Origin: Thermodesulfobacteriota bacterium
Lineage (GTDB): Bacteria > Desulfobacterota_D > UBA1144 > Nemesobacterales > UBA2774
Length of the DNA stretch: 64,000 nt
Assembly: GCA_965216785.1 (NCBI GenBank)
Contig: OZ244197.1
Location: forward strand, 864,001-928,000
Direction of reading: 5' to 3'
In this document: positions 1-31,667 of the stretch, one piece after another
How the letters are laid out: every line of letters starts with the position of its first letter
How positions within the stretch are numbered: the first letter of the stretch is position 1
Notes under the pieces: generated by a model
The model's database searches: none
What the model was told of the DNA's origin: nothing
What the model saw: only the letters and a program-made list of their open reading frames with translations
Program-made: the position numbers and the translations under genes

Positions 1-442
1 CCATCTTGCTCTCATTCATTTGTTCCCTTATAGTGTCACGTTCCAATTCAGCAAATGATGCTAAAATTGTTGCCATCGCTTTTCCAGTATTTGTAGTTGG
101 GTCGAAGTTTTCTTTTATACTTACAATTGATATTCCGTGCTCTTGAAGTTCATGAAATAGGTTCAAGTATTCTCTAGTATTGCGTGCAAATCTTGATAAC
201 CTTGTGAATATTACAACTTCAAACTTTCCTTGCTTAGCATCCTCAATCAATTTTTTAAAATCAGTTCGATGCTCAATTTTAGCACCTGACATACCTTCGT
301 CAGAATATATTTTTTTCAATTCCCAACCTTTGTTCTTAGCAAATTCAGTTATCTGCTCTCTTTGTGTTGAAAGACTTTCACCTTCTTTTACTTGTTTGCT
401 AGTGGATACCCTTGTATAGCCAACTACTTTCTTTATATGCAT
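1..442 (-). CDS. Serine recombinase, probably a large serine integrase (5' part; runs off the window edge; not in the ORF track)
   Basis: Manual translation: MHIKKVVGYTRVSTSKQVKEGESLSTQ...YSDEGMSG...FTRLSRFARN...ENFDPTTNTGKAMATILASFAELERDTIREQM. It has the catalytic YxRVS and SRxAR motifs and an AGAGGA RBS. Confidence 0.93.
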   Translation of the reverse strand, partial: MHIKKVVGYTRVSTSKQVKEGESLSTQREQITEFAKNKGWELKKIYSDEGMSGAKIEHRTDFKKLIEDAKQGKFEVVIFTRLSRFARNTREYLNLFHELQEHGISIVSIKENFDPTTNTGKAMATILASFAELERDTIREQMNESKM

Positions 443-6934: not shown

Positions 6935-7561
6935 TTACTCTCTGATCTTATTAGCCAGATTACCATTTTCTGATGGCAAAACATCAGCATAAAGTACAGT
7001 CATGCTTATTTTGCTATGTCCAAGTTGTTTCTGAACATACCTTAAATTGTTCGTAGCATGAAGCAAAAAGGTAGCATAAGTGTGACGAGCACAGTGGATT
7101 GAATAATGTGAAGGTAAATGAGATTCTTCGATTGCCCTCTTGAATGATTTCATAAGAGTTATTGCTGCGGAGTGTTTTCCATTTCTACCCATAAATAACG
7201 GACTGTCATTATCAACTTCTTCGCCCATTGTTTTCTTTTTCCAAGCTATAAATCTCTTTAAATGGTTTACAAGTTCTTTGTCCAAATAAACATCCCTTTT
7301 TTTACCTCTCTTTCCATTTCGTACAATTAAATATGGATCTTTAGTTGTTAATTCAATATCACCGATTTTTAAGTTAGCAATCTCTGCTACACGCAATCCG
7401 CTAAAAAGTGCTAAATCCACTAACATGTAGCGTTTTATCCATGTTTCACGACCGTGTAATAAATCCAACTCCGACTTATCTTTACAGGTTTTTAACAGTT
7501 TTGATCTTTGATCAGAGTCTAAAATCTTTTCTCTATGGATGTTGTAAGTAGTAGAATTCAT
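6935..7561 (-). CDS. Small tyrosine recombinase (catalytic domain only, 208 aa)
   Basis: GLRVAE (R), GK (K), HCARH (HxxR), LGH and TVLY (Y); no N-terminal core-binding domain. Confidence 0.93.
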   Translation of the reverse strand: MNSTTYNIHREKILDSDQRSKLLKTCKDKSELDLLHGRETWIKRYMLVDLALFSGLRVAEIANLKIGDIELTTKDPYLIVRNGKRGKKRDVYLDKELVNHLKRFIAWKKKTMGEEVDNDSPLFMGRNGKHSAAITLMKSFKRAIEESHLPSHYSIHCARHTYATFLLHATNNLRYVQKQLGHSKISMTVLYADVLPSENGNLANKIRE

Positions 7562-7747: not shown

Positions 7748-8516
7748 TTATTCGTTCTCTATTTTTTCCCAGTCATAGGTAAATTCTACATTTTCAAGAA
7801 ACTTCAGCGCTTTACGCCTCAAGCTCAGGGTCACTGTTTTGACTAGTAGAGATATGATAAAAAATAACTCGATAGAACATAGCTCCTTTACCTATCCAAC
7901 TCTTGTACGGACCTTCTATAACATTAATTTCAATATATTCATAAAAATACCGTTCACTCGGGTTTAATGTAGATTCTAAGAATCTTATTGACGAACCGCC
8001 CTTCCCGAGCCAAATTGGTTTAGATGAGGAATAGTCAGTCTTTGATTTAACACATATATCTTTAATCCCATTTACCACTTCTAAGTTGTATCGATAGTCT
8101 TCAATACCGAACTTATTGTCCTTAAGAGTTGTATTTTGGACGGATTCCAGTTCTTTTTCTATTTTATCAAACAAATATTTATCGCTTAGCTTATCGTTCC
8201 AAGATCCTATATAACTATCGAAACCGATGAAGTAAACATCATCCCCGTCACCGCTAGCAAATTTAGCTTCATTTTCACACTTATCATTTAAAGCATCCAG
8301 GGAATAACTCCTCTTATGCCACTCACCATCTTCGGGAAGCACTATTGAATAACAATTAAGCTCAATCTTGGTAGACGGATTTTCGATCTCAACATATTTT
8401 GCCGAACAGCTGAGAATAAATAAAAAGAATGGTAAGAAGCCGATAAAGAACTTGTAGCTTGGCAGTATTTCTCTATTTAATATACGCCGATCAATGTTCA
8501 TTTGTTCTTTCGCCAT
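7748..8516 (-). pseudogene. Lipoprotein with a 1-nt frameshift near the C-terminus; paralog of 28803-29555
   Basis: Lipobox LSC-SAKY. The ORF stops at ELEA* (7812), but the shifted frame continues KALKFLENVEFTYDWEKIENE* to 7748 and matches the paralog tail. Confidence 0.8.
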
Positions 8517-17000: not shown

Positions 17001-17111
17001 TTAATCTTTCATTCTATTTACTACTTCTAATGTAAAGAAGAAAAGCGCTACAAGTACAGGACATAAACCGTAAATACAAACATCTATAATCTCACTAAAC
17101 CACGCATCCAT
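17001..17111 (-). CDS. Putative 36-aa membrane peptide
   Basis: MDAWFSEIIDVCIYGLCPVLVALFFFTLEVVNRMKD; preceded by AGGAG..GAGGTG RBS. Confidence 0.45.
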   Translation of the reverse strand: MDAWFSEIIDVCIYGLCPVLVALFFFTLEVVNRMKD

Positions 17112-17149
17112 AATCACACCTCGCTCCTGTAATCTATTTTTAAAGACCC

Positions 17150-17323
17150 TTATCCATAATTCATACGTTTCCACTTAGTTATGTCTATTAATGTGCTCAC
17201 ATCTGTAATTGAATCGTGGAGCAGTGTATAGATCCCGAGGGTGTAGAAGCTGAAGAAAATGAGAATAAGAGAGCAAATCCCCAGGATTTGAAGTAGATAT
17301 TTAAATCTTTTAAGTTCGTTCAT
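17150..17323 (-). CDS. Putative 57-aa membrane peptide
   Basis: MNELKRFKYLLQILGICSLILIFFSFYTLGIYTLL...; GAGGT RBS; divergent from tetR. Confidence 0.5.
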   Translation of the reverse strand: MNELKRFKYLLQILGICSLILIFFSFYTLGIYTLLHDSITDVSTLIDITKWKRMNYG

Positions 17324-17366
17324 TTCTTACCTCACTTTAAGTCGTATTAAATTTCCCCTTCAAATA

Positions 17367-17436
17367 ATGAACACCGTTTAATTTCATCATAGCACATAAT
17401 TGAACACTGTTCAAGAGGTAATTTAACAATGTTCAA
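17367..17436. promoter_or_regulatory. Three putative TetR operators, consensus TTGAACAnTGTTCAA
   Basis: atgaacaccgtttaa (17367), the perfect palindrome ttgaacactgttcaa (17400) and tttaacaatgttcaa (17422). Confidence 0.8.
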
Positions 17437-17453
17437 AAAAATCAGTTATACTC

Positions 17454-18062
17454 ATGAATATGGGAAGAAGAAGCGATCATTCGCGTGATAAGATTAAACA
17501 AATGGCTATAGATGCAGGAAGGAATTTAATAGAAACTAAAGGGTTTTCAGGGCTTAGTGCAAGGAAGGTTGCAAAAGAAATAGGGTATACGGTGGGAACT
17601 CTATATAATGTATTCGATAATTTCACTGACCTAATCTGTCATATAAACTATGAAACATTGGATAGGCTAAAGACACATCTTGAAGAAAACTCCAAACCCG
17701 GCAAAAACAGAGTCGATGCGCTAAAACAGTTAGGAGAGTCATATGTTGAGTTTGCCAGAGATAATACTCACCTTTGGTCTGCTCTTTTTGAATTTCAGCA
17801 TCCAAAGGATTATCTATTACCAAAATGGTATTTAGATAAGGTCCGCAGCATTTTCGAACTGCCAGTAAAAATTATAGCCCCTATATTTAAAGGAGATATG
17901 AAAAAGGCAGAATACGAAACAAGGGTAGTATGGGGAGGAGTTCACGGTATATGCCTTCTAGGTATAAGCGATAGACTTGGTCTTGGCAGTGACGAATTGC
18001 TCAAATCAAAAGTAAATTCTCTTATCACTAATTATATGAGAGGAATGGGTGTTGAAGAATGA
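17454..18062 (+). CDS. TetR/AcrR regulator with WHG C-terminal domain
   Basis: GLSARKVAKEIGYTVGTLYNVF HTH; WGGVHG. Confidence 0.95.
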   Translation: MNMGRRSDHSRDKIKQMAIDAGRNLIETKGFSGLSARKVAKEIGYTVGTLYNVFDNFTDLICHINYETLDRLKTHLEENSKPGKNRVDALKQLGESYVEFARDNTHLWSALFEFQHPKDYLLPKWYLDKVRSIFELPVKIIAPIFKGDMKKAEYETRVVWGGVHGICLLGISDRLGLGSDELLKSKVNSLITNYMRGMGVEE

Positions 18063-18143
18063 ATTCAGCTAGATAATTCCTCTTTTATTCATGAGAGTTT
18101 TCTCACGCTAACAGCCTTATGTAATCTGACACGTGAGCACAGA

Positions 18144-20480
18144 TCATGGTTGCATATTGAGCTGTCTTCTTGGTGTAGTTGGTGTATCATAAAAACTTCT
18201 AAGTAGAAGTGGAAGCATTACTAAATCACCAATTAAGATTGCTATAACTGAAAATGTGATTAATAATCCAAAGTAAAACACAGTTTTTATACTAGCAAGA
18301 AGTAGTATTGAAAAGCCTAAAAACAATATTATACTGCTAATTACAATAATTCTGCCTACCTGGTAATTAGCTTTTCTAAGGGCGGTAAATAAGTCCACAC
18401 TACGATTTCGCTCTCTTAGATATCTATTCATATAATGTATAGTATCATCAATAGATATACCGAGTACAATTGCGGCAATAGTAGAAGTAGTCAAATCCAA
18501 ATTGATTTGAGAAAATCCCAAAAACCCAAGAAAAAGTACAATCGGAAATATATTTGGGAGTATGGCAATGAAAGCTAGTTTAAAGCTTCTCAACATGAAC
18601 AGCATAGTGATAAAAATGAAAAAAAATGCTACAAATAGGCTTTTTTTCATTGATCCGAAAGCATAATCCATAACTTTAATAAATAAGGCTGGATAACCTG
18701 GGATGGTTAGATCAGCTATATCTTGGAAGTATTTGGTGCCTAACTCGCTAATATTGTTGAGATTCTTTTCAAGTTGCTTGATACTCATAGTAGATCCAAT
18801 TAACACATTGATCCTTGCTTTAGTAAAATTTTTGTTTATGAAACTACCAGAATCTTCGCTCTCGGTTATAGACTGAGGCAAACTTCTAATAAATGGATCT
18901 GATAAATACGGGTCGTAAAGGGTTTCAAGCAATTCCTTATTGTAAAGTACGTTCGAATATCTTTGTAAAAAGTGAACATAGCTAAATGTGCTTTTTATCT
19001 CTTGCATATCCGTTAATTCTTGTTCAAAATCATGGATGGCTTTGATCAATTTAGGATCTTTCAGGTTTTGGTTCTCTTTAGTTAACACCATGAGGTCTAT
19101 AGGGTAAGCATCGCCACCCCAATTCTCACTTATAAATTTGTGGTCTTTCATGACTTTAGAATCTGCAGAAAAGTAACCCATGGGATTCATATCAATATTG
19201 ATCTGTGTTATTCCATAGGCAGAAATAAACAGTATTAATAATAAAAATGCCCAATAAGCTTTTTGATGTTTAAAAATTTGAGCTAGAAATTGTACTAGGC
19301 TATTTGCTATGTAGGTTTTAGGATTGAACTTTAAGGATGATAGTTTTATAAAGTTCAATAATAATGCACTATATATAAATGCACATATAAGCGCTATTAA
19401 GGTACCAACCGCAGCAAAAACTCCGAATTCCTTTATAACAGATGTCGATGAAGTGAGTAGGGATAAAAATCCTATCATAGTAGTTAGGGTAGTGTACAAA
19501 CAGGGTTTATAGATGTTTATAAGTGCTTGTATAATAGTCTCAGATTTTTTCATTTCTGTTTTTTGATTTTGATACAATAGCTCGAATTCATTGACTATGT
19601 GCAAAACAATAATAAAACCTAAAACGATTATTAATGTAGGAATAATCATAGTAAAAATGTTCAACCTATAACCCAGATATCCATAAATTGAAAGGGTAAT
19701 AATCGTAGAAGTAATCGTTGTTGCAAAAACCAATAATAAATAGAGCACTCTAGGAAAGAACAAAAGAGTAAGCAGGAAGGTCAATAAGTATGTTAAACCT
19801 AAAAATAGAGCAACATCATGTCGTGTTAACTTGTTTAGGTTATATGTCACTATGTCCATACCACCCAAATGAACGTTTTCAGCACCTAAAATATTTATGG
19901 ACACTTGATGAATTTTTTCCACAATATTGTTTCTTTTATCGTCAATGTCCTCTAGTGGATCAAGTTCGATTATTATCATACTAGCCTTACCATCATTATT
20001 GATAAAACGATTTATTAGCAAAGGGGATGATAGAATTGATTTTTTATACTCTGACAATGTTTCTTCTAATATAGGAATGCCATTTTCAAAATAAGAAGTA
20101 AATTCAATCTTGTAAGCACCATCTTCTTTAATTCTCCTTACATCCTTAACATTAGTAATTGACCAAACTTTTTTAATACCTTCAGTGACTTGAAGTTTCT
20201 CAGTTAACGACTTTATTTTATGTAGAGTAGTTGGTTCTATTACTCCAGGACTTTCAACAATTAAAAGAAATATCATCCGGTCGTTACCGAATTCATTTGT
20301 GAATTCGTTGTATAATTTTAGTGATGGGTCATCATCAGCAAACCAAATATTGATTTCACTATTTGGAGATAAAGCATGTTCTAGATACTTTGCACCAAAT
20401 AAAGCTATAACTATTAATATGATTAGAATTACTAACCTAAACTTATAGAAATAGTAAAAGAATCTTTGTACTCTGTGCAT
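18144..20480 (-). CDS. MMPL/RND-family lipid exporter
   Basis: Two repeats of one TM, a large loop and five TMs; TTLTTMIGFLSL and GISIDDTIH motifs. Confidence 0.92.
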   Translation of the reverse strand: MHRVQRFFYYFYKFRLVILIILIVIALFGAKYLEHALSPNSEINIWFADDDPSLKLYNEFTNEFGNDRMIFLLIVESPGVIEPTTLHKIKSLTEKLQVTEGIKKVWSITNVKDVRRIKEDGAYKIEFTSYFENGIPILEETLSEYKKSILSSPLLINRFINNDGKASMIIIELDPLEDIDDKRNNIVEKIHQVSINILGAENVHLGGMDIVTYNLNKLTRHDVALFLGLTYLLTFLLTLLFFPRVLYLLLVFATTITSTIITLSIYGYLGYRLNIFTMIIPTLIIVLGFIIVLHIVNEFELLYQNQKTEMKKSETIIQALINIYKPCLYTTLTTMIGFLSLLTSSTSVIKEFGVFAAVGTLIALICAFIYSALLLNFIKLSSLKFNPKTYIANSLVQFLAQIFKHQKAYWAFLLLILFISAYGITQINIDMNPMGYFSADSKVMKDHKFISENWGGDAYPIDLMVLTKENQNLKDPKLIKAIHDFEQELTDMQEIKSTFSYVHFLQRYSNVLYNKELLETLYDPYLSDPFIRSLPQSITESEDSGSFINKNFTKARINVLIGSTMSIKQLEKNLNNISELGTKYFQDIADLTIPGYPALFIKVMDYAFGSMKKSLFVAFFFIFITMLFMLRSFKLAFIAILPNIFPIVLFLGFLGFSQINLDLTTSTIAAIVLGISIDDTIHYMNRYLRERNRSVDLFTALRKANYQVGRIIVISSIILFLGFSILLLASIKTVFYFGLLITFSVIAILIGDLVMLPLLLRSFYDTPTTPRRQLNMQP

Positions 20481-20518: not shown

Positions 20519-21733
20519 TCATGAAGTGAAACCAAATCTTTCGCTATATTCCGTAAAGTGTTTGGCTATTGTAGAGTCCGTTAATCCAAAATCGGCTGAA
20601 CTATAATCTTGCTTTCCAAATCTATCCTTAGGGTTTTCGATCAAATATGATTGCAAACGCTTCTCAAAACTATCTGACCAAATTAATCCGAAATGATTAT
20701 ATATACCTCTTACTGTGTCTATTGGGTCAGATATTAACTGGTCGTATTGCACGTCATAAATTTTGTTTGGATTAGTAGCACGCACATTAAGACTTATGTT
20801 CGCCCATTTTTTAAGACCTAAAATATTTGTCTCTGCCATTTTTTTGATGTTTAAATCATCTGATACAATTGCATGATTGGAATATATTAGTGTATTTAAA
20901 CTATTACAGACTTTAACCGGGTGACGGTGCGTCTGGATTAACAAAGCTTCAGGTATAGCCTGTAACAGGGTCGGAATTGAACCTGTGTGTGAAGGAGCTT
21001 TAAGTATTAAACGACGTTTTGGATCGACTGATTGTAGTATATGCAGTAGTGAGCGATATTCTTGATATGCTTTAATGTGATCATGTGAATTGAACCAGCT
21101 TGCGTAGCTATATACTGGTGCAATAGTCCAAAAAAAAATACTCGCAAATGTGCTTCCCTGGAGCAATATACATTCTTCGGGAGTATCGGCTCGTGAATAA
21201 TGCAAACGATCAATTTTGGGAGTCAGTTTTAATCTCATCTTTACATCGTTTTCACAAAGTTTTATACGACGATCAGGTTTGCTTAATGGCAATGGTCGCA
21301 ACAATTCCCACATAGGAACTCCACGATGTACTGGATCAAGAGCTAACATGCGATGAAGAAGAGTAGTACCAGTTCTCGGTAAACCTATAATTATGATTGG
21401 TGGTATTAATGGGAGCTGAAACAAAGACGCATTGCATTTTTGAGTCTCTATGAACAATAGCCTATTTGAAAGAAAAAGTTTAATTATTGCATGTACATAT
21501 ATTTGTCCAATAAAGTGAAGATTTACATCCGTTTTGAGGGAATCAAGTAAATATTGTAAACCCTCCCTAAAATATGTATCACCAAAATCCTTCAAACCTG
21601 TATGTCTTCTGGCTGAGTCATATAAAACGTCTTCTTCAAAACGTAAAAACGGCAACTTACCTGCCATCAAATAGCTAGATATTTTGTTCAAGAGACGGTA
21701 ATGCCAAGCCAAACTTGATCGTGAATTTAACAT
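20519..21733 (-). CDS. PAPS-dependent sulfotransferase (Sulfotransfer_3 / mycobacterial Stf-like)
   Basis: 5'PSB loop IIGLPRTGTTLLH; LKAPSH; 3'PB THRHP...S. Confidence 0.92.
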   Translation of the reverse strand: MLNSRSSLAWHYRLLNKISSYLMAGKLPFLRFEEDVLYDSARRHTGLKDFGDTYFREGLQYLLDSLKTDVNLHFIGQIYVHAIIKLFLSNRLLFIETQKCNASLFQLPLIPPIIIIGLPRTGTTLLHRMLALDPVHRGVPMWELLRPLPLSKPDRRIKLCENDVKMRLKLTPKIDRLHYSRADTPEECILLQGSTFASIFFWTIAPVYSYASWFNSHDHIKAYQEYRSLLHILQSVDPKRRLILKAPSHTGSIPTLLQAIPEALLIQTHRHPVKVCNSLNTLIYSNHAIVSDDLNIKKMAETNILGLKKWANISLNVRATNPNKIYDVQYDQLISDPIDTVRGIYNHFGLIWSDSFEKRLQSYLIENPKDRFGKQDYSSADFGLTDSTIAKHFTEYSERFGFTS

Positions 21734-21853: not shown

Positions 21854-24800
21854 TCAAGTTGTGTTAGTATTGTTGCTGAAATTTTGTTTAAGTTGGTTAA
21901 TAGTTGATTTGCGTATTTCAGCCATATTCATTTTTAAATTGAAACCATATTCCAGTGCAATCAATATTTCAACAGTCATAAGTGAGTCCATACCTAATTC
22001 GAATAATGGAGTATCCATATCAACCTGACTTTCATTTTGAAATCCAAAAATATGTAGTATTACATTTACTAAGTCTGTAGAAGTCTTTTTAGAGTTGTTA
22101 GCAAATTCTTTGTGACGGTGAAGGTCTAATGTAAAACTTGTTACAACTGTTTCGTCTTGACTTAGTAATATGTCAAGATTTTCAATACAGGAATGTATAC
22201 TCTGCAAACCGAGCAAAGTATTGGAAAGATTTACATAAGCATTTTTCTGAATGAAACCTACATCACCAATAGGTCCCCACTGTATTGAGATTGCAGGTAG
22301 ACCATTTCTCTTCCTTTGTTCACATAATCTATCCATAGCTGCATTGGCAAATGCATAGTTAGTTTGCCCTTCATTACCTTCGGTGGCTACTATTGATGAA
22401 AAGCAAACGAATTGATCAAGTTTTTTACAATACTCCGAGCTGACTTTACTAAGATTTTCAGCTCCATTCAATTTCACTGAACAGACTTTTTCAAAGGTGT
22501 GTTTATCCTGATTGAGAAATAGTGCATCGGACATGACCATCGCTAAATGAAATATCCCACCAATTGGCGCAATTTTTTCACATTGCTTAATAAGATGCAA
22601 AGTTGATCTATAATTTGTTACATTTCTTTTACTTATCGTTACATTAGCTCCGAGATTTTGCATTTTATCTATTTTTGAGGCCTGGTATCCATTTTTGATA
22701 CCTCTTCTACTTGTTAAAACAAGATTTTTAGCACCTCGAAGAACTAACCAGTATGCTAATTCAAGCCCGAACCCACCTAGTCCACCAGTTATTATATATA
22801 TCTTCTTCGAGTCACATGAGAATTTTGGTTTAGCGAGTACCTTGATTTTGTCTCTATTATTCTCATCTCGAATGCGAATGAGTACTTTCCCAATATGCTT
22901 TGCTCTAGCCATATACCGAAAGGCATCTTCTACCTCATCATAATCAAAAATAGTTCTATCTAATGGTTTTATTACTCCACTTTTAATACCTTTATCGAAC
23001 AGTTGTAACAGTCTTTTTGTTTCATCAGGATTGTGCAAGATAGTACTACTCAGATCTACTCCATGGATGCTTATATCTTTCAAAAATATAGACATGCCCA
23101 AGGGGGTATCCTGAATCCTATCAAATTTCCCAATTTCCACAAAATGCCCATTCATAGCAAGAACTCTCAGACTTGCAAGCATAAGCTCACCTGATAGTGA
23201 GTTAAGAACAATATCAACTCCATGACCATTTGTTTGTTGAAAAACCAACTTTTCAAATGATGTATCTCTACTATAACCTATATGATCATCGTCTATTTGA
23301 GGGAATTTTTTCTTGATATATTTCCTTTTTTCTTCGCTACCAACTGTTGTAAATACTTCACATTGCATTGATAGAGCTAGATTGATTGCGGCAATACCAA
23401 TACCACCTGACCCAGAATGGATTAGTACTTTTTGACCTTGTTTCATACCAGCCCTTATGATAAGTCCCAGATATACAGTAAGATAGACAAGTGGAACAGT
23501 TGCTGCTTCTTCCAAAGTCCAGGATTCTGGGACCTTCCAGGCCCGGTCCACCTTTCGTTGCAATATAACTTTTGTTGAAAGCGCTTTTACGGCAATACCC
23601 ATTACACGTTGACCATCACGATTTCGTATACCGGAGAATTCCATTCCTGGACAATCATGATATGTTCCACCTGACTCTGCTGGCAATTTTCCAGAAGCAA
23701 GCATAATGTCTTTAAAATTCAATGCGCAGTAGTTAACATCATAAACATCAGATTCATGACATAGATCTGGAGCACTTATCCATCTCATACTTGAAAAATC
23801 ACCTTTTGTCATGACCTGCATGTAGGCGCTATCGGTCTCGACCATATCTGTTTCGGGTAACTCCCTATATTGGTATGATCCCCATATACCGTTTTTGAAT
23901 ACATTTGTGGCTAAATCATGTTTTAGAACCTTGGATATCTGTCTTTTACTAACTTTATTAGAATCATCTACGAACAGACACCGAACCCTATCTCCGTTGG
24001 GTTCCTTGCGAAGACTTCTTACTAATCCGGTCAAACCAGGTGCAGAAGCTGAATTACCCATTAACCACAAACGTTTGTTTGTATTATCATTAAGAGCATT
24101 ATAATAATCTTGACATGTTTTTAAGTCATCTTTATTAAACTGCAATCTCTGATGGATAGATTTTTTATTATATGTTTTACGACAAAGGATCATTTTTTGT
24201 TTATAAGTCTCTTTAATAGCTACTATATCAAAACCGCTATCTTGTAGTAGATTGTTCCAATTTTCTTGAGATAAATTTAAACCCACATCCTGTCCATCAA
24301 CATCCCAGTAATTCCAGAATTTTTTTCGTAAGCCCCAAGTACAAAGAATTGATGCTAGATTGGCATTTTCAATATTTAACAAAAGAAAACCGCCATCTTT
24401 AAGACTCTTTCTAATATTTTGTAATGCTTGCATTAGTTCACTATTAGTGTTAAATGTTTGTCCGGTTATTACTAGATCATAAGTCTTTTCATGGTGAGTT
24501 CTTGTGAAATCCCAAATCTGATAATCCGTTACCATTGAAAAATTACTAAGTTCATTTTTTATCCTATCAAAGTAGGAATCATCAAAATCTGTGATTACAT
24601 AACGATCATTAATAGATCTAAGATTAGTTAAAACCTTCCGGCTAAATAAACCTGTTACTGGACCTACTTCACAAATATGAATAGAATTTTGAGAATTGAG
24701 ATTTTCTTGAACTATGTTCAGCATCTCACGAATAAAATAATCACTATGAAATAAAGTGTCTGCTAAATCTCGATTGTACAGATCATCATATTCCTCAAAT

Positions 24801-27800
24801 CCAGCAATATGCTTTTCTGTATTTCTAATTAATTTTTCAGGCTTTTTGTACAAATATTTGATAAATCTAAGATTTACACTATTAGGGTGCTTTAAGTATT
24901 TATTAAGACTTTTTTTATTCGGGATTTTCTTATCATAACCTCTTAGCATATCCTTTATTCTCAAAAAATGTGAAGGTATATCTTTGTCACAAGTTTTAAG
25001 GTGTCTGTAAAAATGTAAGAATTGAGTTATAGCATAAGAATTTTCAATCTCATTATATACCTCGATGTTACGTCCTTCCCGCAATTTTTCGTAATATGGC
25101 GAGAAGTGCATTGAGGCTAAAATTGGTGGTTTCTCAATTCTCTCGGAAAGTGAAAGACCTACAAAACCTTCCATAACAAATGAAGAACAATATTTTGTAA
25201 AAAGATGTTGGTCGAAATGAATTTCAACAAACGACTCGTTGTAATTATGTTTTAGTGGATCAATGGTTACGCGTCTATAATAGGTAGGTAAAACAGTAGA
25301 TCGATTATTCACAAGAAGTATGTTTGTTTGTGCCATACTGTCGAGAAATGTAATCCAATTTCCATCCCATTTTACTTTTGCCCAATTGCCGTTTGTTGAG
25401 GATTCAGATATTACTTGAAACTTTGGACCATAGTCATAGCCACGTAATCTAAATTCTTGATAGATATCATCTTTAGAAAGTATGATTTCATATTCATTTC
25501 TGTACTTTTGCTCAACAGTATCAGGCCATCGAATGTCATCTCCAATTTTTAATTTCCCACTCGCCAGCAAAGTGTCTTTTTCTTTAACCTCAAACATCTG
25601 GCTTTCTTTAAGATAACTAACATTGAATTCAAATTTCTCGTCACTACGAATCATTGATGCTCTATGTAGTTTTACATCTTCAAACTGTACAGGAAGTGTT
25701 TCTTGAGGAACCTGTAGATTAAGAGATGCGGCTTTCCAAGTTAAATATAAATATCCCACGGCCGGGAAAACTATTTTTCCATTTAGTCTATGATCACTCA
25801 AAAAATTGTACTCTTCTTCCTTTACATCTATATCAAATGTAAATTGCACCCGTTCTTCAGCAATCTTCGGGACAGGCCATGTTTTGTGATGATCCCATGC
25901 CATTAGATTTGGTATTCTAGGCAGACTTTTAAAAGATGGTTTGTTATTGACAAGATTTTCATAATTCATATCAAGCCCTGACACATAACAATGACTAAGT
26001 CCATCAAATAGGTTAACAATGTTGTTTGAATTCCGCTGCATAAAACTAATGTGAGTGATATTATTTAAACTCTCAATTAGTATCCCTCGAAATAAGGCAT
26101 GAGCGCCGATCTCAATTACAATAGATCCATTTGGTATGTATTTTATTCCTTCGTGAAAATATACGGGATTAAGCAAGTTATTTTTGAAGTAGTTAGCAGA
26201 ACAATACCTAGCACGGTGCCATTCACGTTCAGGACGAGAAGTGCAAATCCATCGCTTACTGCGTTCTAGAGGTTTTGGTATGATTTCACCGAGTTTAGAA
26301 TGAAACTTTTCTGCTGCTGGACTAACCATATGAGAATGGAAAGCTTTTCTTGTTGATCTTATTACTTTGGCCTCTATATTCTTTGTTTCTAATTTCTTCA
26401 CAAACCTGGAAATTGCTTTTTTCTCTCCTGATACAGTTACATTGTTTTCACCATTATGACATGCTACAACTACATCTTTTGGGCATATTTTTTCAGTTTC
26501 GAATAAATTTAGACCTACATATGCCATGGCCCCTGCTTTAACTTTGGTTTCAAGCATAGACCTTCCACGCCAGTAACTAACTCGCATTGCTTGTTCCCGG
26601 GTCAATTTTCCATCTGCATAGGCACATGCTATCTCTCCTACACTGTGTCCTATTAAAAAGTCTGGTTTTAGTCCGGCTAAATTTAAAATATCAACTAGAG
26701 CAATTTGAATCGCCGTCAAACAAGGAAATGTATTCACTGTATTTTCAAATGCTCTTTCGTCACAATCCGATAAAAGTTCTATTAAATTTAACTCTGTATG
26801 CTCAAGAGCATTGTTGCATAGATTAATTGATCGCCTGAATACTGGCACATTAATTAAGTCTGAAGCCATACCTGTCCATTGCGCACCTATACCATTAAAT
26901 ACATAACAAAGGCTTGGCTTCTTTAATGGCGTTTTACCTCTAATAATTCTGCACTGGTTGTTTTCTGTTCTATAAATTACTGCTCGATTGTTCATTTTAT
27001 TCAATTGAGTAGAAGCTAGGGGTTGTAAAAATGACGCTATATCATTGCGGCATCTAATATTCTCTAGATATTCTAAAAATGTGTCAAGCCCATCCTCAGT
27101 CCGAAAGGAGCAGGGGGCGATTGAATATCCTTGTGTTAATTCTGGGATTTCTTTATGAGATTTAGCCTGCCCTTCTAGAACAAGATGAGCGTTTGCACCA
27201 CCAAACCCAAATGAACTGATTCCTACCAGTCCACCCTTCCATGGAGTTCTTTCTAAAACCACTTTTAATCTGCCCTCTAAAATTCCTTTCATTTCAGGGT
27301 TTGGCTCTGAAAAGTTGATATTTGGTGGGATTTCTCCATGATACATGGCAAGTAGTATCTTTAATACACTGGCGAGGCCCGCAGCACCTTCCGTGTGTCC
27401 AATATTCGATTTTACAGAACCAATAAGTAAAGGATTCTTTTTATTTCGATTTTGACCTAAAACTTCATCTATAGCAGCTACTTCTTGAGGATCTCCTGCT
27501 GGTGTACCTGTTCCATGAGCCTCATAATATTTTATTTTGGTAGTATCAATACCAATGTCATTATATGCTTTGCGAAGGAGAGACACTTGAGCTTGTTTGT
27601 TAGGAAAAGTTACACCTTCTCTATTGTAGCCATCGTTGTTTGTCACACAATTGAGTATGCGAGAATAATTTCTTCGTGCTAAATGTTCACGTGTTATTAA
27701 AGTAGCTACAATTCCATCTGATCGCACATAACCGTCTGCAGATTTATCAAATACTTTGCTCTCACCTTCTGGTGAAAGCATCTGAAATTTCGTCATCGAA

Positions 27801-28399
27801 ATAGAAAGGTTCGGGGTAAATATCAGATTAGCTCCACCAATTAGTGCAAAATCACACCTTCCTGTGATAATTGCATCTATACCAGCACTTAGAGCAAATA
27901 TTGAAGATGAACATGCTGTGTCTATGGTCATACTGGGGCCATTGAAATCGAAGAAATATGAAATACGGTTAGAAAGCATAGCAAGCGATATACCTGCAGC
28001 CTCATACCCAGTAAGACGATTAGCGTCAGCTACATAGGTACCAGCTGCTTCACTACCCATGCATCCCATAAAAACACCTGTATTTGAGTTTCGTAATTCC
28101 AGAGGGTTATAACCTGCATCTAGAATAGCTTCATAACAAACCTCTAGCATTAAACGAGTCATAGGATCGAGTTTTTCAGCTTGTCTTGCACTTATTTCAA
28201 AAAATTGGGAATCAAAGTAATCAGGGGTTTTTACTTTTCCGAAACGCTTAGGTGTGGAAAATATACCATTTGGCCAGCGTTCTCTCTCAACTGAAGTCAT
28301 ATCCTTAGCATTGATCAGATTTTCCCAAAATTCATCAGGACTATCTGATTCTGGAAGTCGACAAGATATACCGCCGAATACTATATTTTCTTTACTCAT
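21854..28399 (-). CDS. Animal-FAS-like type I synthase, KS-MAT-DH-pseudoMT-ER-KR-ACP, no thioesterase
   Basis: KS DTACSS, HGTGT and NIGH; AT GHSVG and AFHS; DH HRLNGKIVFP and WITFLD; ER IHSGSGGIG; KR GGLGGFG and GQTNY; ACP GMDSL at the C-terminus. Confidence 0.93.
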   Translation of the reverse strand: MSKENIVFGGISCRLPESDSPDEFWENLINAKDMTSVERERWPNGIFSTPKRFGKVKTPDYFDSQFFEISARQAEKLDPMTRLMLEVCYEAILDAGYNPLELRNSNTGVFMGCMGSEAAGTYVADANRLTGYEAAGISLAMLSNRISYFFDFNGPSMTIDTACSSSIFALSAGIDAIITGRCDFALIGGANLIFTPNLSISMTKFQMLSPEGESKVFDKSADGYVRSDGIVATLITREHLARRNYSRILNCVTNNDGYNREGVTFPNKQAQVSLLRKAYNDIGIDTTKIKYYEAHGTGTPAGDPQEVAAIDEVLGQNRNKKNPLLIGSVKSNIGHTEGAAGLASVLKILLAMYHGEIPPNINFSEPNPEMKGILEGRLKVVLERTPWKGGLVGISSFGFGGANAHLVLEGQAKSHKEIPELTQGYSIAPCSFRTEDGLDTFLEYLENIRCRNDIASFLQPLASTQLNKMNNRAVIYRTENNQCRIIRGKTPLKKPSLCYVFNGIGAQWTGMASDLINVPVFRRSINLCNNALEHTELNLIELLSDCDERAFENTVNTFPCLTAIQIALVDILNLAGLKPDFLIGHSVGEIACAYADGKLTREQAMRVSYWRGRSMLETKVKAGAMAYVGLNLFETEKICPKDVVVACHNGENNVTVSGEKKAISRFVKKLETKNIEAKVIRSTRKAFHSHMVSPAAEKFHSKLGEIIPKPLERSKRWICTSRPEREWHRARYCSANYFKNNLLNPVYFHEGIKYIPNGSIVIEIGAHALFRGILIESLNNITHISFMQRNSNNIVNLFDGLSHCYVSGLDMNYENLVNNKPSFKSLPRIPNLMAWDHHKTWPVPKIAEERVQFTFDIDVKEEEYNFLSDHRLNGKIVFPAVGYLYLTWKAASLNLQVPQETLPVQFEDVKLHRASMIRSDEKFEFNVSYLKESQMFEVKEKDTLLASGKLKIGDDIRWPDTVEQKYRNEYEIILSKDDIYQEFRLRGYDYGPKFQVISESSTNGNWAKVKWDGNWITFLDSMAQTNILLVNNRSTVLPTYYRRVTIDPLKHNYNESFVEIHFDQHLFTKYCSSFVMEGFVGLSLSERIEKPPILASMHFSPYYEKLREGRNIEVYNEIENSYAITQFLHFYRHLKTCDKDIPSHFLRIKDMLRGYDKKIPNKKSLNKYLKHPNSVNLRFIKYLYKKPEKLIRNTEKHIAGFEEYDDLYNRDLADTLFHSDYFIREMLNIVQENLNSQNSIHICEVGPVTGLFSRKVLTNLRSINDRYVITDFDDSYFDRIKNELSNFSMVTDYQIWDFTRTHHEKTYDLVITGQTFNTNSELMQALQNIRKSLKDGGFLLLNIENANLASILCTWGLRKKFWNYWDVDGQDVGLNLSQENWNNLLQDSGFDIVAIKETYKQKMILCRKTYNKKSIHQRLQFNKDDLKTCQDYYNALNDNTNKRLWLMGNSASAPGLTGLVRSLRKEPNGDRVRCLFVDDSNKVSKRQISKVLKHDLATNVFKNGIWGSYQYRELPETDMVETDSAYMQVMTKGDFSSMRWISAPDLCHESDVYDVNYCALNFKDIMLASGKLPAESGGTYHDCPGMEFSGIRNRDGQRVMGIAVKALSTKVILQRKVDRAWKVPESWTLEEAATVPLVYLTVYLGLIIRAGMKQGQKVLIHSGSGGIGIAAINLALSMQCEVFTTVGSEEKRKYIKKKFPQIDDDHIGYSRDTSFEKLVFQQTNGHGVDIVLNSLSGELMLASLRVLAMNGHFVEIGKFDRIQDTPLGMSIFLKDISIHGVDLSSTILHNPDETKRLLQLFDKGIKSGVIKPLDRTIFDYDEVEDAFRYMARAKHIGKVLIRIRDENNRDKIKVLAKPKFSCDSKKIYIITGGLGGFGLELAYWLVLRGAKNLVLTSRRGIKNGYQASKIDKMQNLGANVTISKRNVTNYRSTLHLIKQCEKIAPIGGIFHLAMVMSDALFLNQDKHTFEKVCSVKLNGAENLSKVSSEYCKKLDQFVCFSSIVATEGNEGQTNYAFANAAMDRLCEQRKRNGLPAISIQWGPIGDVGFIQKNAYVNLSNTLLGLQSIHSCIENLDILLSQDETVVTSFTLDLHRHKEFANNSKKTSTDLVNVILHIFGFQNESQVDMDTPLFELGMDSLMTVEILIALEYGFNLKMNMAEIRKSTINQLKQNFSNNTNTT

Positions 28400-28482
28400 C
28401 CTACCACCACCAAATTTAATTTTTCCTACTAACTACTTCTCTATAATTGAATAGATATAACTTTAACGCCCCCCCCATCAAA

Positions 28483-28530
28483 TTTAACACTGTTCAATTA
28501 CTTTATACTATATTGATTCAGTGCAGTCAA
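28483..28530 (-). promoter_or_regulatory. Synthase operon promoter with a TetR operator at the predicted start site
   Basis: TTGACT (28530-28525), 17 nt, TATAAA (28507-28502); operator tttaacactgttcaa at 28483-28497. Confidence 0.75.
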
Positions 28531-28802: not shown

Positions 28803-29555
28803 ATGAAAGTAGATTGGCATATCTCAATATGGGGTTTTTATATATCTCGGACATGGTATTTTTTCCTTTTTTCTATATCTTTATTTATTCTAAGTTGTTC
28901 TGCTAAATACGTTGATATAGATAATCCATCTCGTCGGGTTGATCTTAATTGTTTCTCTATAACACTTCCCGTTAATGGTGATTGGTATAAGAGAAGTTAC
29001 TACGTACCAGAATTACAAGATAAGTGCGAAAATGAAGCTAGATTTGCTAGTGGTAATGAGGAAGGGGTCTACTTCATTGGGTTTGAGAGTTATATAGGAG
29101 ACTGGAAAGAAGAATTTAGCAATAAATACTTATTAGATAAAAAAGTACAAGAACTCGAAGATGAACAAAATGAAATTCTTAAAGATAACAGGTTTGGTAT
29201 TGAAGACTTTCGTTATAATGTGGAAGTAGTTAGTGGAATAAAAGATATTTCCGTAAAATCAAAGACCACCTATTCCTCATCCAAGCCAAATTGGCATGGG
29301 TATGGTGGTTCTTCAGTAGAATTTTTGAAATCTACACTAAAACCAAGTGACCGATACTACTATGAATTCATAGAGCTAAGTGTTATAGAGGGCCCTTATA
29401 AACGTTGGATAGGACAAGGGGCTATCATATATCGAGTAATTTTTTACCATATATCAGTTAATGAAGACGGTGACCCGGAGCTTGAGGAGAATTCGCTGAA
29501 GTTTCTAGAAAACTTAGAATTTACTGACGACTGGGAAAGAGTAGATAAAGATTAA
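28803..29555 (+). CDS. Hypothetical lipoprotein; intact paralog of 7748-8516
   Basis: FILSCSAKYV lipobox; colinear similarity along the whole length. Confidence 0.85.
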   Translation: MKVDWHISIWGFYISRTWYFFLFSISLFILSCSAKYVDIDNPSRRVDLNCFSITLPVNGDWYKRSYYVPELQDKCENEARFASGNEEGVYFIGFESYIGDWKEEFSNKYLLDKKVQELEDEQNEILKDNRFGIEDFRYNVEVVSGIKDISVKSKTTYSSSKPNWHGYGGSSVEFLKSTLKPSDRYYYEFIELSVIEGPYKRWIGQGAIIYRVIFYHISVNEDGDPELEENSLKFLENLEFTDDWERVDKD

Positions 29556-30116: not shown

Positions 30117-30830
30117 TTATTCATGAGTCTCGATACTACGGGCCTTACCCTCTCGTTCATTTCGAGGGATGAACATATCAATATATACATCTTTGTAGAT
30201 ATGCTTCGTCAAATATTGTATAGCTCCCCTAGTGGGGTCATAAATTTTTATCACTGCGTTTCCGTTAACAATACGATCAATAAAAGGTCCATTTTTCCCA
30301 ATGCGTTGTCCGTTACACTCCCAGAGCTTTGCCATATACTTCCTGCTAAGTTCTAATAACCCTTCTGCACCTAGTAGAGCATGAATGTGAAGTGTTCCCC
30401 TCTTCTGATACTCGTACACAACCGCATAACGTATACCACGCCCCCTCAGTTTATAGCGCCAGCCAAATAGACTACAGTTAAGAGACCCAAGCCACTTATG
30501 GAATCTCTGCTCAGCTTTCATAAGATCTATATCTTCTATAAACGTCAAGGTAACAAACATGTCATAATCATAGCGAGAGATAAATTCTTGCCAGTCCATT
30601 TGCAGGTCTTTATTAAACCAGCCTGTCTTTAGAGGTTTATACTCCCTTTTGTTTTGCTCACTTTCAATTTGAGAATTTATGATATGATGAGAGGATTTAT
30701 CATAAGCTAAACAATTATCTCTACCCTTTATTCTTCTTCTTATTGATTGTTCTTCTCTTAATTTCCGAAAAATGCTGTTCTGACCATCCACAAGTATCTT
30801 GTATGCAAGTTTAGAAATCTTCTTCTTCAT
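30117..30830 (-). CDS. Rolling-circle replication initiator-like HUH endonuclease
   Basis: Motif I FVTLTF, motif II EYQKRGTLHIHAL, motif III YLTK; GAGGAGG RBS. Confidence 0.85.
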   Translation of the reverse strand: MKKKISKLAYKILVDGQNSIFRKLREEQSIRRRIKGRDNCLAYDKSSHHIINSQIESEQNKREYKPLKTGWFNKDLQMDWQEFISRYDYDMFVTLTFIEDIDLMKAEQRFHKWLGSLNCSLFGWRYKLRGRGIRYAVVYEYQKRGTLHIHALLGAEGLLELSRKYMAKLWECNGQRIGKNGPFIDRIVNGNAVIKIYDPTRGAIQYLTKHIYKDVYIDMFIPRNEREGKARSIETHE

Positions 30831-30947: not shown

Positions 30948-31667
30948 TTACATCAGAATAGTAGGCAGTCTCCGCGCGAGCATGGTCTTTCCCGCTCCTG
31001 GGGAACCTATCATGAGTAAGTTATGCCCACCGCTCGCGGCAACCTCAAGAGAGCGTTTTACGTGCTCCTGGCCTTTTACCTCGCGAAAATCGACCTGGTG
31101 CTCCCTTGCTTCCTTGAATACCGATTTTATGTCTACTTTGGTAGGTTTTATCTCTTTCTTATCCGCAAAGAACTCCACCACGTCCTGAAGCGAATCAACT
31201 CCCAGCACATCAATACCGCTTACCACCGCTGCTTCCTCGGCGTTTTCCCTGGGGAGAATGATGCCCTTTAGCTTTAGGTCCCTTGTGCAGATTGAAGTCG
31301 GAAGAGCGCCTTTGATCGGTTTAACCTCACCGTCCAGTGAGAGCTCGCCCAGGATTATATAGTCTTTTAGCTTTTTGTGATCGACAAGACCCATTACGGT
31401 AAGGATGCCGATTGATATTGGCAGGTCGAATGCGGAGCCCTCTTTTCTTATGTCCGCAGGGGCCAGGTTTACCGTGATTCTTCTGTATGGGAACTCATAG
31501 CCGCAGTTCTTGATCGCGGCGCGCACCCGCTCCTTGCTCTCTTTCACGGCCCCTTCGGGCAGGCCAACTGTATTAAAAGCCGGAAACCCTAGCGCTATAT
31601 CCACTTCCACTTCCACGAGATAGGCGTCAACTCCCAGCACTGCGCTGCTCAGAACTTTAGCTATCAT
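30948..31667 (-). pseudogene. comM: ComM/YifB Mg-chelatase-like ATPase, 5' half, interrupted by the island
   Basis: VGLPEGAVKESKERV, NLAPADIRKEGSAFDLP, GELSLDG and GHNLLMIGSPGAGKTMLARRLPTIL, then a stop at 239 aa. The family is about 500 aa. Confidence 0.93.

Follow-up and report, generated by a model that had tools for sequence, protein, structure and literature searches.

How a bacterial chromosome came to carry a fatty acid synthase (FAS) of the animal type, and what the enzyme may make there, are the questions raised by a gene in the window analysed here, a stretch of 64,000 nucleotides from a Thermodesulfobacteriota genome. The reading that best explains the data, at a probability of about 0.6 as a whole, is the following. 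The gene encodes an intact, intronless, bacterial one-module synthase of the animal-FAS lineage and belongs to a sister-group family that has long resided in bacteria and moved between phyla. The window copy is a recent arrival, brought in by an island of low GC, and it would make a straight, fully reduced acyl chain that likely ends up in a secreted sulfated lipid.

The synthase gene, its island and the assembly

The features of the synthase gene were located as follows:

21854..28399, minus strand: animal-FAS-type single-module megasynthase, 2181 aa, ending after the acyl carrier protein (ACP)
27164..28390, minus strand: ketosynthase (KS) domain, aa 4–412, C163/H295/H335 intact
26021..26905, minus strand: AT/MAT domain, aa 499–793, S586/R611/H688, YWRG and NNL positions animal-MAT-like
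25250..25843, minus strand: DH domain, aa 853–1050, H870/P879/D1020/Q1024 intact
24218..24730, minus strand: pseudo-methyltransferase (pseudo-MT), aa 1224–1394, glycine motif degenerate, NxxH histidine gone
23861..24100, minus strand: FAS-type pseudo-KR (PF21149), aa 1434–1513, 65.5 bits against a cut-off of 27.4
22874..23749, minus strand: ER domain, aa 1551–1842, NADPH glycines and K1758 intact
22265..22801, minus strand: KR domain, aa 1867–2045, K1976/S2002/Y2015/N2019 intact
21887..22069, minus strand: ACP, aa 2111–2171, S2139
28404..28411, minus strand: Shine-Dalgarno-like GGTGG repeat, read from the sequence
28502..28530, minus strand: sigma-70-like pair TTGACT-N17-TATAAA, picked by eye

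The uninterrupted 2181-aa frame described in the first-pass annotation was recovered on the minus strand (the plus-strand frame is stop-rich), with no introns and a GC content of 35.7% (GC3 25.7%). Pfam placed the domains in the order KS-AT-DH-pseudoMT-pseudoKR-ER-KR-ACP (KS aa 4–473, AT 499–793, DH 853–1015, a weak MT 1224–1394, FAS_pseudo-KR 1434–1513, ER 1666–1841, KR 1867–2045, ACP 2111–2171), which agrees with the order KS-MAT-DH-pseudoMT-ER-KR-ACP proposed earlier and adds the pseudo-KR. The description of the protein as FASN-like minus the thioesterase (TE) also held: Pfam returned no thioesterase, and the stop lies 42 aa past the ACP serine. A stop after the ACP was also found in P0122, which is 79% identical to the window synthase. 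By sequence comparison, all 20 catalytic and cofactor positions checked were the same as in human FAS, and the ACP serine was present as well. A single-sequence fold of the pseudo-MT region (pLDDT 34) was discarded. The Shine-Dalgarno-like repeat, 7 nt upstream of the ATG, matched the ribosome-binding site noted earlier. The bacterial promoter was unsupported: the sigma-70-like pair was absent from the promoter scanner list, and promoter-like sites numbered 42 against 51.6 ± 8.4 in shuffles of the region.

The synthase is carried as cargo by a 32-kb island inserted within comM. The mobile island suspected at first reading was confirmed, with the two comM halves flanking the insertion. The left edge lies 1.2 kb upstream of the window start. 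The island features were:

1..442, minus strand: start of a large serine recombinase (563 aa, genome positions 862751–864442), adjoining the comM 3' half
6935..7561, minus strand: small tyrosine integrase, bracketing the cargo together with the Rep gene
17454..18062, plus strand: TetR-family regulator, with a 94%-identical copy in another island
30117..30830, minus strand: rolling-circle-type Rep (PF23343, Pfam)
30948..31667, minus strand: comM 5' half, broken at about 30954, the right edge of the island

The TetR gene was considered as a regulator of the lipid genes and rejected, its twin residing in an island without synthase, sulfotransferase or MMPL genes; it is probably part of the island scaffold and not of the lipid block.

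Two readings would remove the question altogether: assembly of the region as a chimera with eukaryotic DNA, or a polyketide synthase (PKS) of the ordinary bacterial cis-AT or Mas-like kind. Such chimeras do occur, as in the animal FAS fragment at the end of an Alphaproteobacteria MAG contig (L025, not counted as bacterial because it is probably a chimera), and a single sample is the source of all four supporting runs. Against this, single 66-kb contigs covered 18.1/18.6–33.5 kb, including the right edge of the island, without variants in four of the four runs of that sample. Their contiguity and even depth bear out the continuity of the contig, the gene is intronless, and homologs were found in bacterial context across several phyla, one cluster member lying on a 4.46-Mb contig. 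As for an ordinary PKS, placement of the synthase among ordinary bacterial PKSs was rejected by the AU test (p 8e-47, in a tree that leaves Mas outside), and the NCBIfam models missed their cut-offs (NF045894, 736 against 1740 bits; NF041183, Pks2, 625 against 2400). Both readings, which the first-pass annotation had named as fatal to its claim, are thus refuted within the limits of computation and are given a negligible probability.

Position among FAS-type enzymes

Trees were built from 77 of 80 rows, leaving out P0417 (a near-duplicate of L019) and two rows with partial domains (L067 and P0019). A 38-row set was obtained by thinning by hand, in which closely related and partial rows were taken out together with one long animal branch (L048). 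The LG+G4 bootstrap tree (38 rows × 1475 columns) recovered the bacterial clade (100/100), the animals (100/100), bacteria plus animals (100/99) and all FAS-type rows (100/100, on a stem of 0.65). The same topology was obtained with 77 rows (SH-aLRT 100, 100, 99, 100) and under PMSF LG+C10 (SH-aLRT 99.7, 100, 99.5, 100), the PMSF profiles being derived from a guide tree already in the favoured topology. Next out from bacteria plus animals branched Coccomyxa/Elliptochloris, then the fungal HR-PKSs. Single-domain trees joined bacteria and animals for AT (99), KR (99) and DH (89); in the KS, ER and MT trees the bacterial rows did not form one group, and the ER tree had one animal row among them. 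Many rows failed the composition test. Diagnostic columns numbered seven for bacteria plus animals and zero for either animals plus algae or bacteria plus algae.

In AU tests, for which the constrained trees came from fast searches, the synthase inside animals was rejected (p 7e-34), as was the whole bacterial clade inside animals (p 5e-5 and 0.029). The arrangement 'this pair alone sister to animals' was rejected at p 0.022 only, and neither animals plus algae (p 0.136) nor bacteria plus algae (p 0.076) was rejected. On sequence grounds, a sister-group relation of the bacterial clade to the animal enzymes is the most likely placement. The earlier proposal had left open a transfer from animals or a sister lineage; the trees retain the sister lineage, and transfer from a crown animal was AU-rejected for the animals sampled.

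The family is rare, scattered and multi-phylum. The bacterial clade comprised 19 tree rows, 11 of them in a bacterial genomic context and 8 with none shown; the metagenome loci were the best 80 of 200, with 47 of the 80 (L027–L073) classified. Two peptide patterns run across 185,579 species genomes yielded seven loci. Searches of the host's class (119 relatives) and of the families of three other carriers (150, 31 and 150 relatives) brought up no member. Three scans of viral contigs contained no member (the best match, giant-virus bin L119, was closest to ordinary PKSs), and a plasmid collection gave weak MT-level matches only. A KS-AT profile search of cluster representatives was not used: the 150 matches listed, ranked by summed score, were all long multimodular proteins. 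An ESM Atlas query with aa 840–1860 gave generic PKS clusters alone. Gene GC was within 0.08 of flank GC at 14 of 14 loci (range 0.38–0.69), and dN/dS was about 0.09–0.22 in four of five pairs of relatives, the fifth being saturated; both results are in line with genes that are real and maintained. The other loci fetched were stand-alone genes amid housekeeping or regulatory genes.

The GxGTGG motif and the NxxH histidine were intact in 15 of 19 bacterial-clade rows, in all seven algal rows and in none of 22 animal rows. Of the 18 complete bacterial rows, 14 had a tail of 230–283 aa. Its predicted structure (pLDDT 82) has an alpha/beta-hydrolase fold matching thioesterases, human FAS TE among them; by sequence, the best PDB match of the tail profile had an E value of 0.075. 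Because most relatives keep both the MT motif and this tail, the dead MT of the window copy is convergent, and a crown animal is an unlikely donor. The degenerate motif EVGPVTG, read earlier as animal-like, was therefore observed as described but is no evidence of animal kinship, since the intact motifs were lost separately on the branch of the synthase.

An origin in eukaryotes would have a stem animal or an unsampled protist, with a methylating, TE-bearing synthase, pass the gene to bacteria once, long ago, followed by spread between phyla; we place this at a little under even odds. It involves the same enzyme and the same tree as the preferred reading and differs in direction only. Several carriers are named Ca. 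Thiodiazotropha, which we take to be animal symbionts, and the next branches out are eukaryotic. The bacterial rarity, with absence from the relatives of the host and of the three other carriers examined, points the same way. A eukaryotic origin would, however, need many losses, no type I FAS having been found in sponges, ctenophores and choanoflagellates (Lin et al., PMC10764717), and Coccomyxa is the sole known member of Plantae with a metazoan-like FAS-I (Blanc et al., PMC3446292). Moreover, P0416 groups with the algae (99/96) and has a tail of bacterial type (E 1e-9, the animal TE profile giving 1.8); should P0416 be bacterial, the root would have bacteria on both sides.

The bacterial rows could also be nested within the grade of animal FAS-like PKSs (AFPKs), which is basal to FAS (Lin et al., PMC10764717). 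The trees lacked EcPKS1/2, most AFPK clades (sea-slug AFPKs included), animal PKSs, amoebal PKSs and Mas; they held one named probable AFPK (Bactrocera P0467) besides unnamed divergent animal rows, and one nesting alternative was rejected only at p 0.029. Nevertheless, EcPKS1 scored 1841 bits against hemichordate FAS and 1240–1300 against bacterial members, which in turn scored 1518–1607 against vertebrate FASN; these values fit ((FAS, EcPKS), bacteria). Nesting would also require the bacteria to regain intact MT motifs, and we regard it as improbable.

At a little under even odds, animal cytosolic FAS was itself acquired from bacteria: the placozoan-cnidarian-bilaterian ancestor may have taken up a family member and then lost MT activity, the algal cousin being acquired separately. 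If so, the pre-animal enzyme has living models in those bacterial members that retain an intact MT and a thioesterase, and the window copy represents a family still mobile on islands in which MT loss was repeated.

Non-animal homologs were already known from Coccomyxa (2012, PMC3446292), a precedent that the first-pass annotation missed along with the multi-phylum bacterial family; that family is apparently the new part. A bacterial clade of animal-type FAS was not found reported in the literature covered (subscription journals lay outside it), and none of six names or accessions tried was found in 11 of the 18 supplement files of PMC10764717. The bacterial clade sits on the same long stem, nearer to animals than the fungal HR-PKSs or the known algal copies, and thus breaks the long branch. 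Its genes keep the methyltransferase that animals lost, and the origin of animal FAS becomes testable, phylogenetically as well as through biochemical work on genes that are intronless and expressible. New enzymes of FAS architecture, for lipids that are branched or sulfated, may also come from the family.

Proposed product

Two genes lie directly downstream of the synthase:

20519..21733, minus strand: sulfotransferase (PF13469), 404 aa, following the synthase after a gap of 120 bp (PDB 2zq5, E 7e-44; 2z6v, E 1e-37)
18144..20480, minus strand: MMPL/HAE3-like RND transporter, 778 aa, following the sulfotransferase after a gap of 38 bp

The sulfotransferase resembles these two structures, presumably StF1 and StF9, and not evidently Stf0. 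In the proposed pathway, the ACP would be primed by a 236-aa phosphopantetheinyl transferase of the host, and the MAT would load an acyl starter and malonyl units. Iterative KS-KR-DH-ER cycling without C-methylation would then give a straight, fully reduced acyl chain. Release would take place in trans, there being no TE: either an acyltransferase or thioesterase of the host would act, or the chain would leave once a hydroxyl had been sulfated. The sulfotransferase would use PAPS, and the MMPL protein would export the product. Typical family members, stand-alone and with MT and thioesterase-fold tail, would instead release methyl-branched fatty acids. The phosphopantetheinyl transferase, an APS kinase and a free-standing thioesterase-family gene are present in the host genome, and because type II FAS genes are retained there, the synthase is considered accessory.

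Repurposing for a specialised lipid is plausible from gene adjacency, and the case for a sulfated lipid comes from adjacency seen in a single genome. The synthase might instead act alone, supplying saturated acyl-ACP for host lipids or an unrelated polyketide, with the sulfotransferase and the MMPL protein as chance neighbours; this we put at a little under even odds. The other family loci fetched had neither a sulfotransferase nor an MMPL homolog in their flanks. Sulfotransferase homologs with no accompanying PKS were present on two cyanobacterial plasmids. They were also present, and to the extent checked not linked, in 27 relatives from the host's class that lack the synthase. Chance is opposed by the co-orientation of the three genes, their narrow spacing and similarly low GC (35.7%, 36.1% and 31.5%, synthase to MMPL). 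It is opposed also by the missing release domain, which stand-alone members have, and by a PKS fused to the same sulfotransferase family in Planktothrix.

The mycobacterial sulfolipid-1 gene set presumably combines a TE-less iterative reducing synthase, a sulfotransferase and an MMPL exporter, and the adjacency of these three is matched in the window. That cluster differs in having a dedicated PapA-type acyltransferase; the 15 proteins of the window that were scanned, which do not include every island ORF, gave no sign of an acyltransferase.

Comparison with known systems

Against solved structures, the synthase scored 1508–1518 bits with vertebrate FASN, 1194–1240 with EcPKS1/2, 512 with Mas and 496 with LovB. 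It belongs to another clade than the mycobacterial Mas/Pks2-type iterative PKSs. Fungal HR-PKSs (LovB and relatives) share the order KS-AT-DH-MT-ER-KR-ACP and form the next outgroup, at about 30% identity (aligned domains) and with a stem of 0.6–0.9 substitution/site between.

The metazoan-like FAS-I of Coccomyxa/Elliptochloris is non-animal, falls in the same long-stemmed FAS-type clade and has intact MT motifs like most bacterial members. It differs in being eukaryotic, 32% identical to the synthase and outside bacteria plus animals in the best trees. The Coccomyxa enzyme carries a long NRPS-type terminal domain (Blanc et al., PMC3446292); the synthase has no tail, against 836–880 aa in the three algal rows measured.

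AFPKs (EcPKS1/EcPKS2, PDB 9cq1 and 9ctk; PMC10764717, PMC10515154) have a single FAS-type module, probably for a specialised product, as here. In PMC10515154, motifs gave no prediction of the substrate or reduction pattern of AFPKs. AFPKs are animal-encoded and reported from molluscs and arthropods only, whereas the window synthase lies on a bacterial chromosome in a contiguous assembly; bit scores bring EcPKS1 nearer to animal FAS than to the bacterial family and point to a place outside the AFPK grade for the synthase.

With metazoan FASN (PDB 8vf7, 2vz8), the synthase shares the domain order through the ACP, the pseudo-KR, the MAT signature positions and the checked catalytic residues, at 38–40% full-length identity, and the MT looks inactive in both. 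All eight motifs quoted earlier from the synthase, and EVGPVTG, were present in the frame; five of their eight FASN counterparts were exact in human (P0430) and the remaining three in chimpanzee (P0426). The linker motifs are, however, common to the whole bacterial family. Over aligned domains, mean identity was 44.8% to named animal FAS (15 rows) and 45.5% to other bacterial members (17 rows). FASN turns acetyl- and malonyl-CoA into saturated C16–C18 acids. It ends in a thioesterase, which the window synthase is without; in most bacterial members the MT is kept, as is a tail of thioesterase fold with only distant likeness to the animal TE. In contrast to FASN, the synthase is bacterial, intronless and borne on a mobile island, and it falls outside the animal clade with an MT loss of its own.

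The synthase gene and its island

The first-pass annotation had described an uninterrupted 2181-codon gene, and a single open frame of that length was present on the minus strand. By Pfam, the product contained KS, AT, DH, weak methyltransferase (MT), FAS-specific pseudo-KR, ER, KR and ACP domains and no thioesterase (TE), which matched the proposed TE-less order and added the pseudo-KR. All motifs quoted for the protein were found in the frame, and the FASN counterparts in records for human or chimpanzee. Against solved structures, the protein scored 1508-1518 bits with vertebrate FASN, 1194-1240 with EcPKS1/2 (sea-slug animal FAS-like PKSs, AFPKs), 512 with mycocerosic acid synthase and 496 with LovB. 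The catalytic and cofactor positions checked, with the functions we take them to have, all carried the human residues (20/20). An SD-like sequence was found at the gene; the bacterial promoter claimed with it was not borne out, the candidate being no better than chance. The gene is real, and from its sequence the enzyme is predicted to work like animal FAS minus release; it falls outside the animal clade.

The host genome is one 3.12-Mb contig (completeness 92%, contamination 0.6%). In 4/4 public runs, which share one sample and are not independent sampling, one even-depth 66-kb contig spanned the synthase, the sulfotransferase, the right edge of the island and genes beyond, with zero letter differences. 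These continuous contigs contradict a chimeric assembly with eukaryotic DNA, the artifact the annotation had warned of. A mobile-island location was upheld, as comM is split by the insert here and intact in a same-genus genome. The main features are:

Window 21854-28399, minus strand: synthase, 2181 aa
Window 20519-21733, minus strand: sulfotransferase
Window 18144-20480, minus strand: MMPL-type transporter
Window 30954 and genome 862,779 (1.2 kb before the window starts): comM breakpoints
Island left edge: serine recombinase, 563 aa
Window 6935-30830, genome 1289416-1297728 and genome 1163415-1164038: integrase/Rep elements

GC was 37% in the 32-kb insert, 36% in the synthase gene and 46% in the genome; 1.7% of equal-sized windows were as low. 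The sulfotransferase and MMPL-type transporter (Pfam) lie downstream of the synthase in the same orientation. The cargo lies between a small tyrosine integrase gene and a Rep gene, a layout repeated in an 8-kb element at another place in the genome. Each element of this family is bounded by a 208-aa tyrosine integrase and, at its opposite end, a rolling-circle Rep; the integrase is present in three copies (85-88% identity).

Several further repeats were observed. The TetR region (window 17003-18093) is duplicated (89%) at genome 121234-122324 in a second island, which also has NHL-repeat and lipoprotein genes and is without the synthase, sulfotransferase and transporter. Two inverted lipoprotein-like paralogues of no Pfam family (window 7748-8424 and 28880-29555, 75% DNA identity) flank most of the cargo. 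Copies of a ~40-bp repeat (window 855, 2656, 5409 and 6864; eight more in the genome) separate cassette-like genes (DUF1254/1214, IPTL-CTERM proteins, nitrilase) adjoining the small integrase, and may serve a cassette array as recombination sites. Genome 948728-948919, ~54 kb past the right edge of the island, carries a third comM fragment, a short one (75% over 64 aa).

Relatives in other bacteria

The top ten matches beyond the query were metagenomic or unnamed and TE-profile-negative, and animal FAS came next (among the best 120 of 2579 matches). The TE-less relative P0122 is a full-length 2180-aa protein, 79% identical to the window protein; another homologue, P0007, bears the automatic JGI label 'fatty acid synthase, animal type'. 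P0002 and P0007 are TE-less as well. Two DH-region patterns, run against 185,579 species genomes, gave eight confirmed loci, seven of them family members; the choice of patterns makes these counts lower bounds. The titles of these seven MAGs name Ca. Thiodiazotropha (3), Gammaproteobacteria (2), Gemmatimonadales and Granulosicoccaceae. The eighth, L025:9800-10213, was a fragment of animal FAS that ends an Alphaproteobacteria MAG contig; it has apparent intron borders and is 62% identical to the soil-animal locus L040. It is probably a chimeric assembly in a reference genome. A viral contig (L001), whose open frame is 3359 aa or longer, had a weak DH-pattern match and no match to the family.

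A metagenome scan added further members (a lower bound), whose neighbours, recognised from their translations, are presumably glycolytic, biotin, purine and mismatch-repair genes. Of the clade's 19 tree rows, 11 could be tied to a bacterial name or to bacterial neighbours and eight could not. The gene is sporadic: searches of family relatives of three carriers (150, 31 and 150) did not recover it, and 119 other genomes of the host's class held nothing matching better than ordinary PKS (best E 2e-128). Where present it is maintained: dN/dS was ~0.09-0.22 in 4/5 pairs of relatives and gene GC tracked flank GC in 14/14 loci (range 0.38-0.69).

Placement of the family

KS, AT, DH, ER and KR were aligned separately and joined (1475 columns), and 16 ordinary bacterial PKSs served as the outgroup. 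In the 77-row tree, 19 bacterial rows formed one group (SH-aLRT 100), 27 animal or animal-like rows formed a second (100), sister to the first (99); seven Coccomyxa-type algal rows and P0416 fell outside both. All 54 FAS-type rows were joined on one stem of length 0.61 (100), and fungal HR-PKSs branched next. Supports in a 38-row bootstrap tree and under PMSF LG+C10 were, respectively, 100/100 and 99.7 for bacteria, 100/100 and 100 for animals, 100/99 and 99.5 for bacteria plus animals, and 100/100 and 100 for all FAS-type rows.

The annotation had left two options, of which the bacterial sister lineage was recovered and a place for this protein inside animals was rejected (AU 7e-34). AU tests under PMSF also rejected the family inside animals (5e-5, 0.029), the window protein and P0122 alone as sister to animals (0.022), and grouping with ordinary bacterial PKSs, the result named in advance as fatal (8e-47). 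Animals with algae (0.136) and bacteria with algae (0.076) stayed above the rejection level. Single-domain trees all kept the FAS-type stem (98-100); AT, KR and DH joined bacteria with animals, and KS, ER and MT left bacterial rows unresolved or split. The trees were built without EcPKS1/2 and most AFPK clades; EcPKS1 scored 1841 bits against animal FAS and 1240-1300 against bacterial proteins, which fits, short of proof, a family outside FAS plus AFPK. We put the placement as a bacterial sister group at roughly 80%.

The MT segment gives evidence on a crown-animal donor that does not depend on the trees. Its GxGTGG motif and NxxH histidine are intact in 15/19 bacterial-clade and 7/7 algal rows, partial in two bacterial-clade rows, lost in the window protein and P0122, and absent in 22/22 animal rows with an alignable segment. 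The animal MT thus appears to have decayed after the bacteria/animal split, which speaks against such a donor. The MT is degenerate, as first described, and its likeness to animal FAS does not appear inherited. Of 18 complete bacterial rows, 14 have a terminal domain of 230-283 aa in which GxSxG-type, Asp and His positions are present; its model (pLDDT 82) matched thioesterases and other alpha/beta-hydrolases, human FAS TE included. The typical member therefore has the whole animal architecture with an MT that looks active, and the dead MT and missing TE of the window protein are presumably derived.

Product, direction of transfer and known systems

Elongation and reduction sites are intact in the window protein, and the host genome encodes PPTase, APS kinase and a free-standing thioesterase-family gene and retains type II FAS genes. 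The enzyme may iteratively build a straight saturated acyl-ACP, whose chain would be off-loaded in trans, then sulfated and exported. The later steps are proposed because the genes are adjacent, the release domain is missing and a Planktothrix PKS has as its last domain a member of the sulfotransferase family of the synthase's neighbour. Against a sulfated product, neither a sulfotransferase nor an MMPL neighbour was found at the other fetched family loci, and AFPK chemistry is reported to have resisted prediction from motifs (PMC10515154). A sulfated product is accorded a little under an even chance.

The Planktothrix plasmid PKS (L116:4247-11764; KS-AT-KR-DH-ACP-TE-sulfotransferase) adjoins NRPS, iron alcohol dehydrogenase and PhyH dioxygenase genes. 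Sulfotransferase homologues (L109-L115) occurred in 27/36 genomes of a single, distant genus within the class, and in none of the other genera searched. Structural matches of the sulfotransferase were PDB 2zq5 and 2z6v, which we take to be StF1 and StF9.

The trees give no orientation of transfer. Two transfers into eukaryotes are needed if the lineage arose in bacteria, an origin that would explain the absence of type I FAS from sponges, ctenophores and choanoflagellates reported by Lin et al. (PMC10764717); we hold it tentatively, at clearly less than even odds. A eukaryotic origin, possible at a similarly sub-even level, takes one transfer into bacteria and agrees with the outgroups being eukaryotic and the bacterial members rare, but many losses are needed. 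P0416, a deep FAS-type protein from a 21-kb NCBI contig, grouping with Coccomyxa-type algae and carrying a bacterial-type hydrolase tail, is the pivot for rooting.

A literature search at listing level returned no report of a bacterial clade of animal-type FAS. Coccomyxa is reported to have seven metazoan-like FAS-I whose divergence preceded the animal radiation, in an account (PMC3446292) that leaves open transfer from an unknown donor. Within the known metazoan-FAS lineage, the window protein represents a bacterial branch outside the animal clade.
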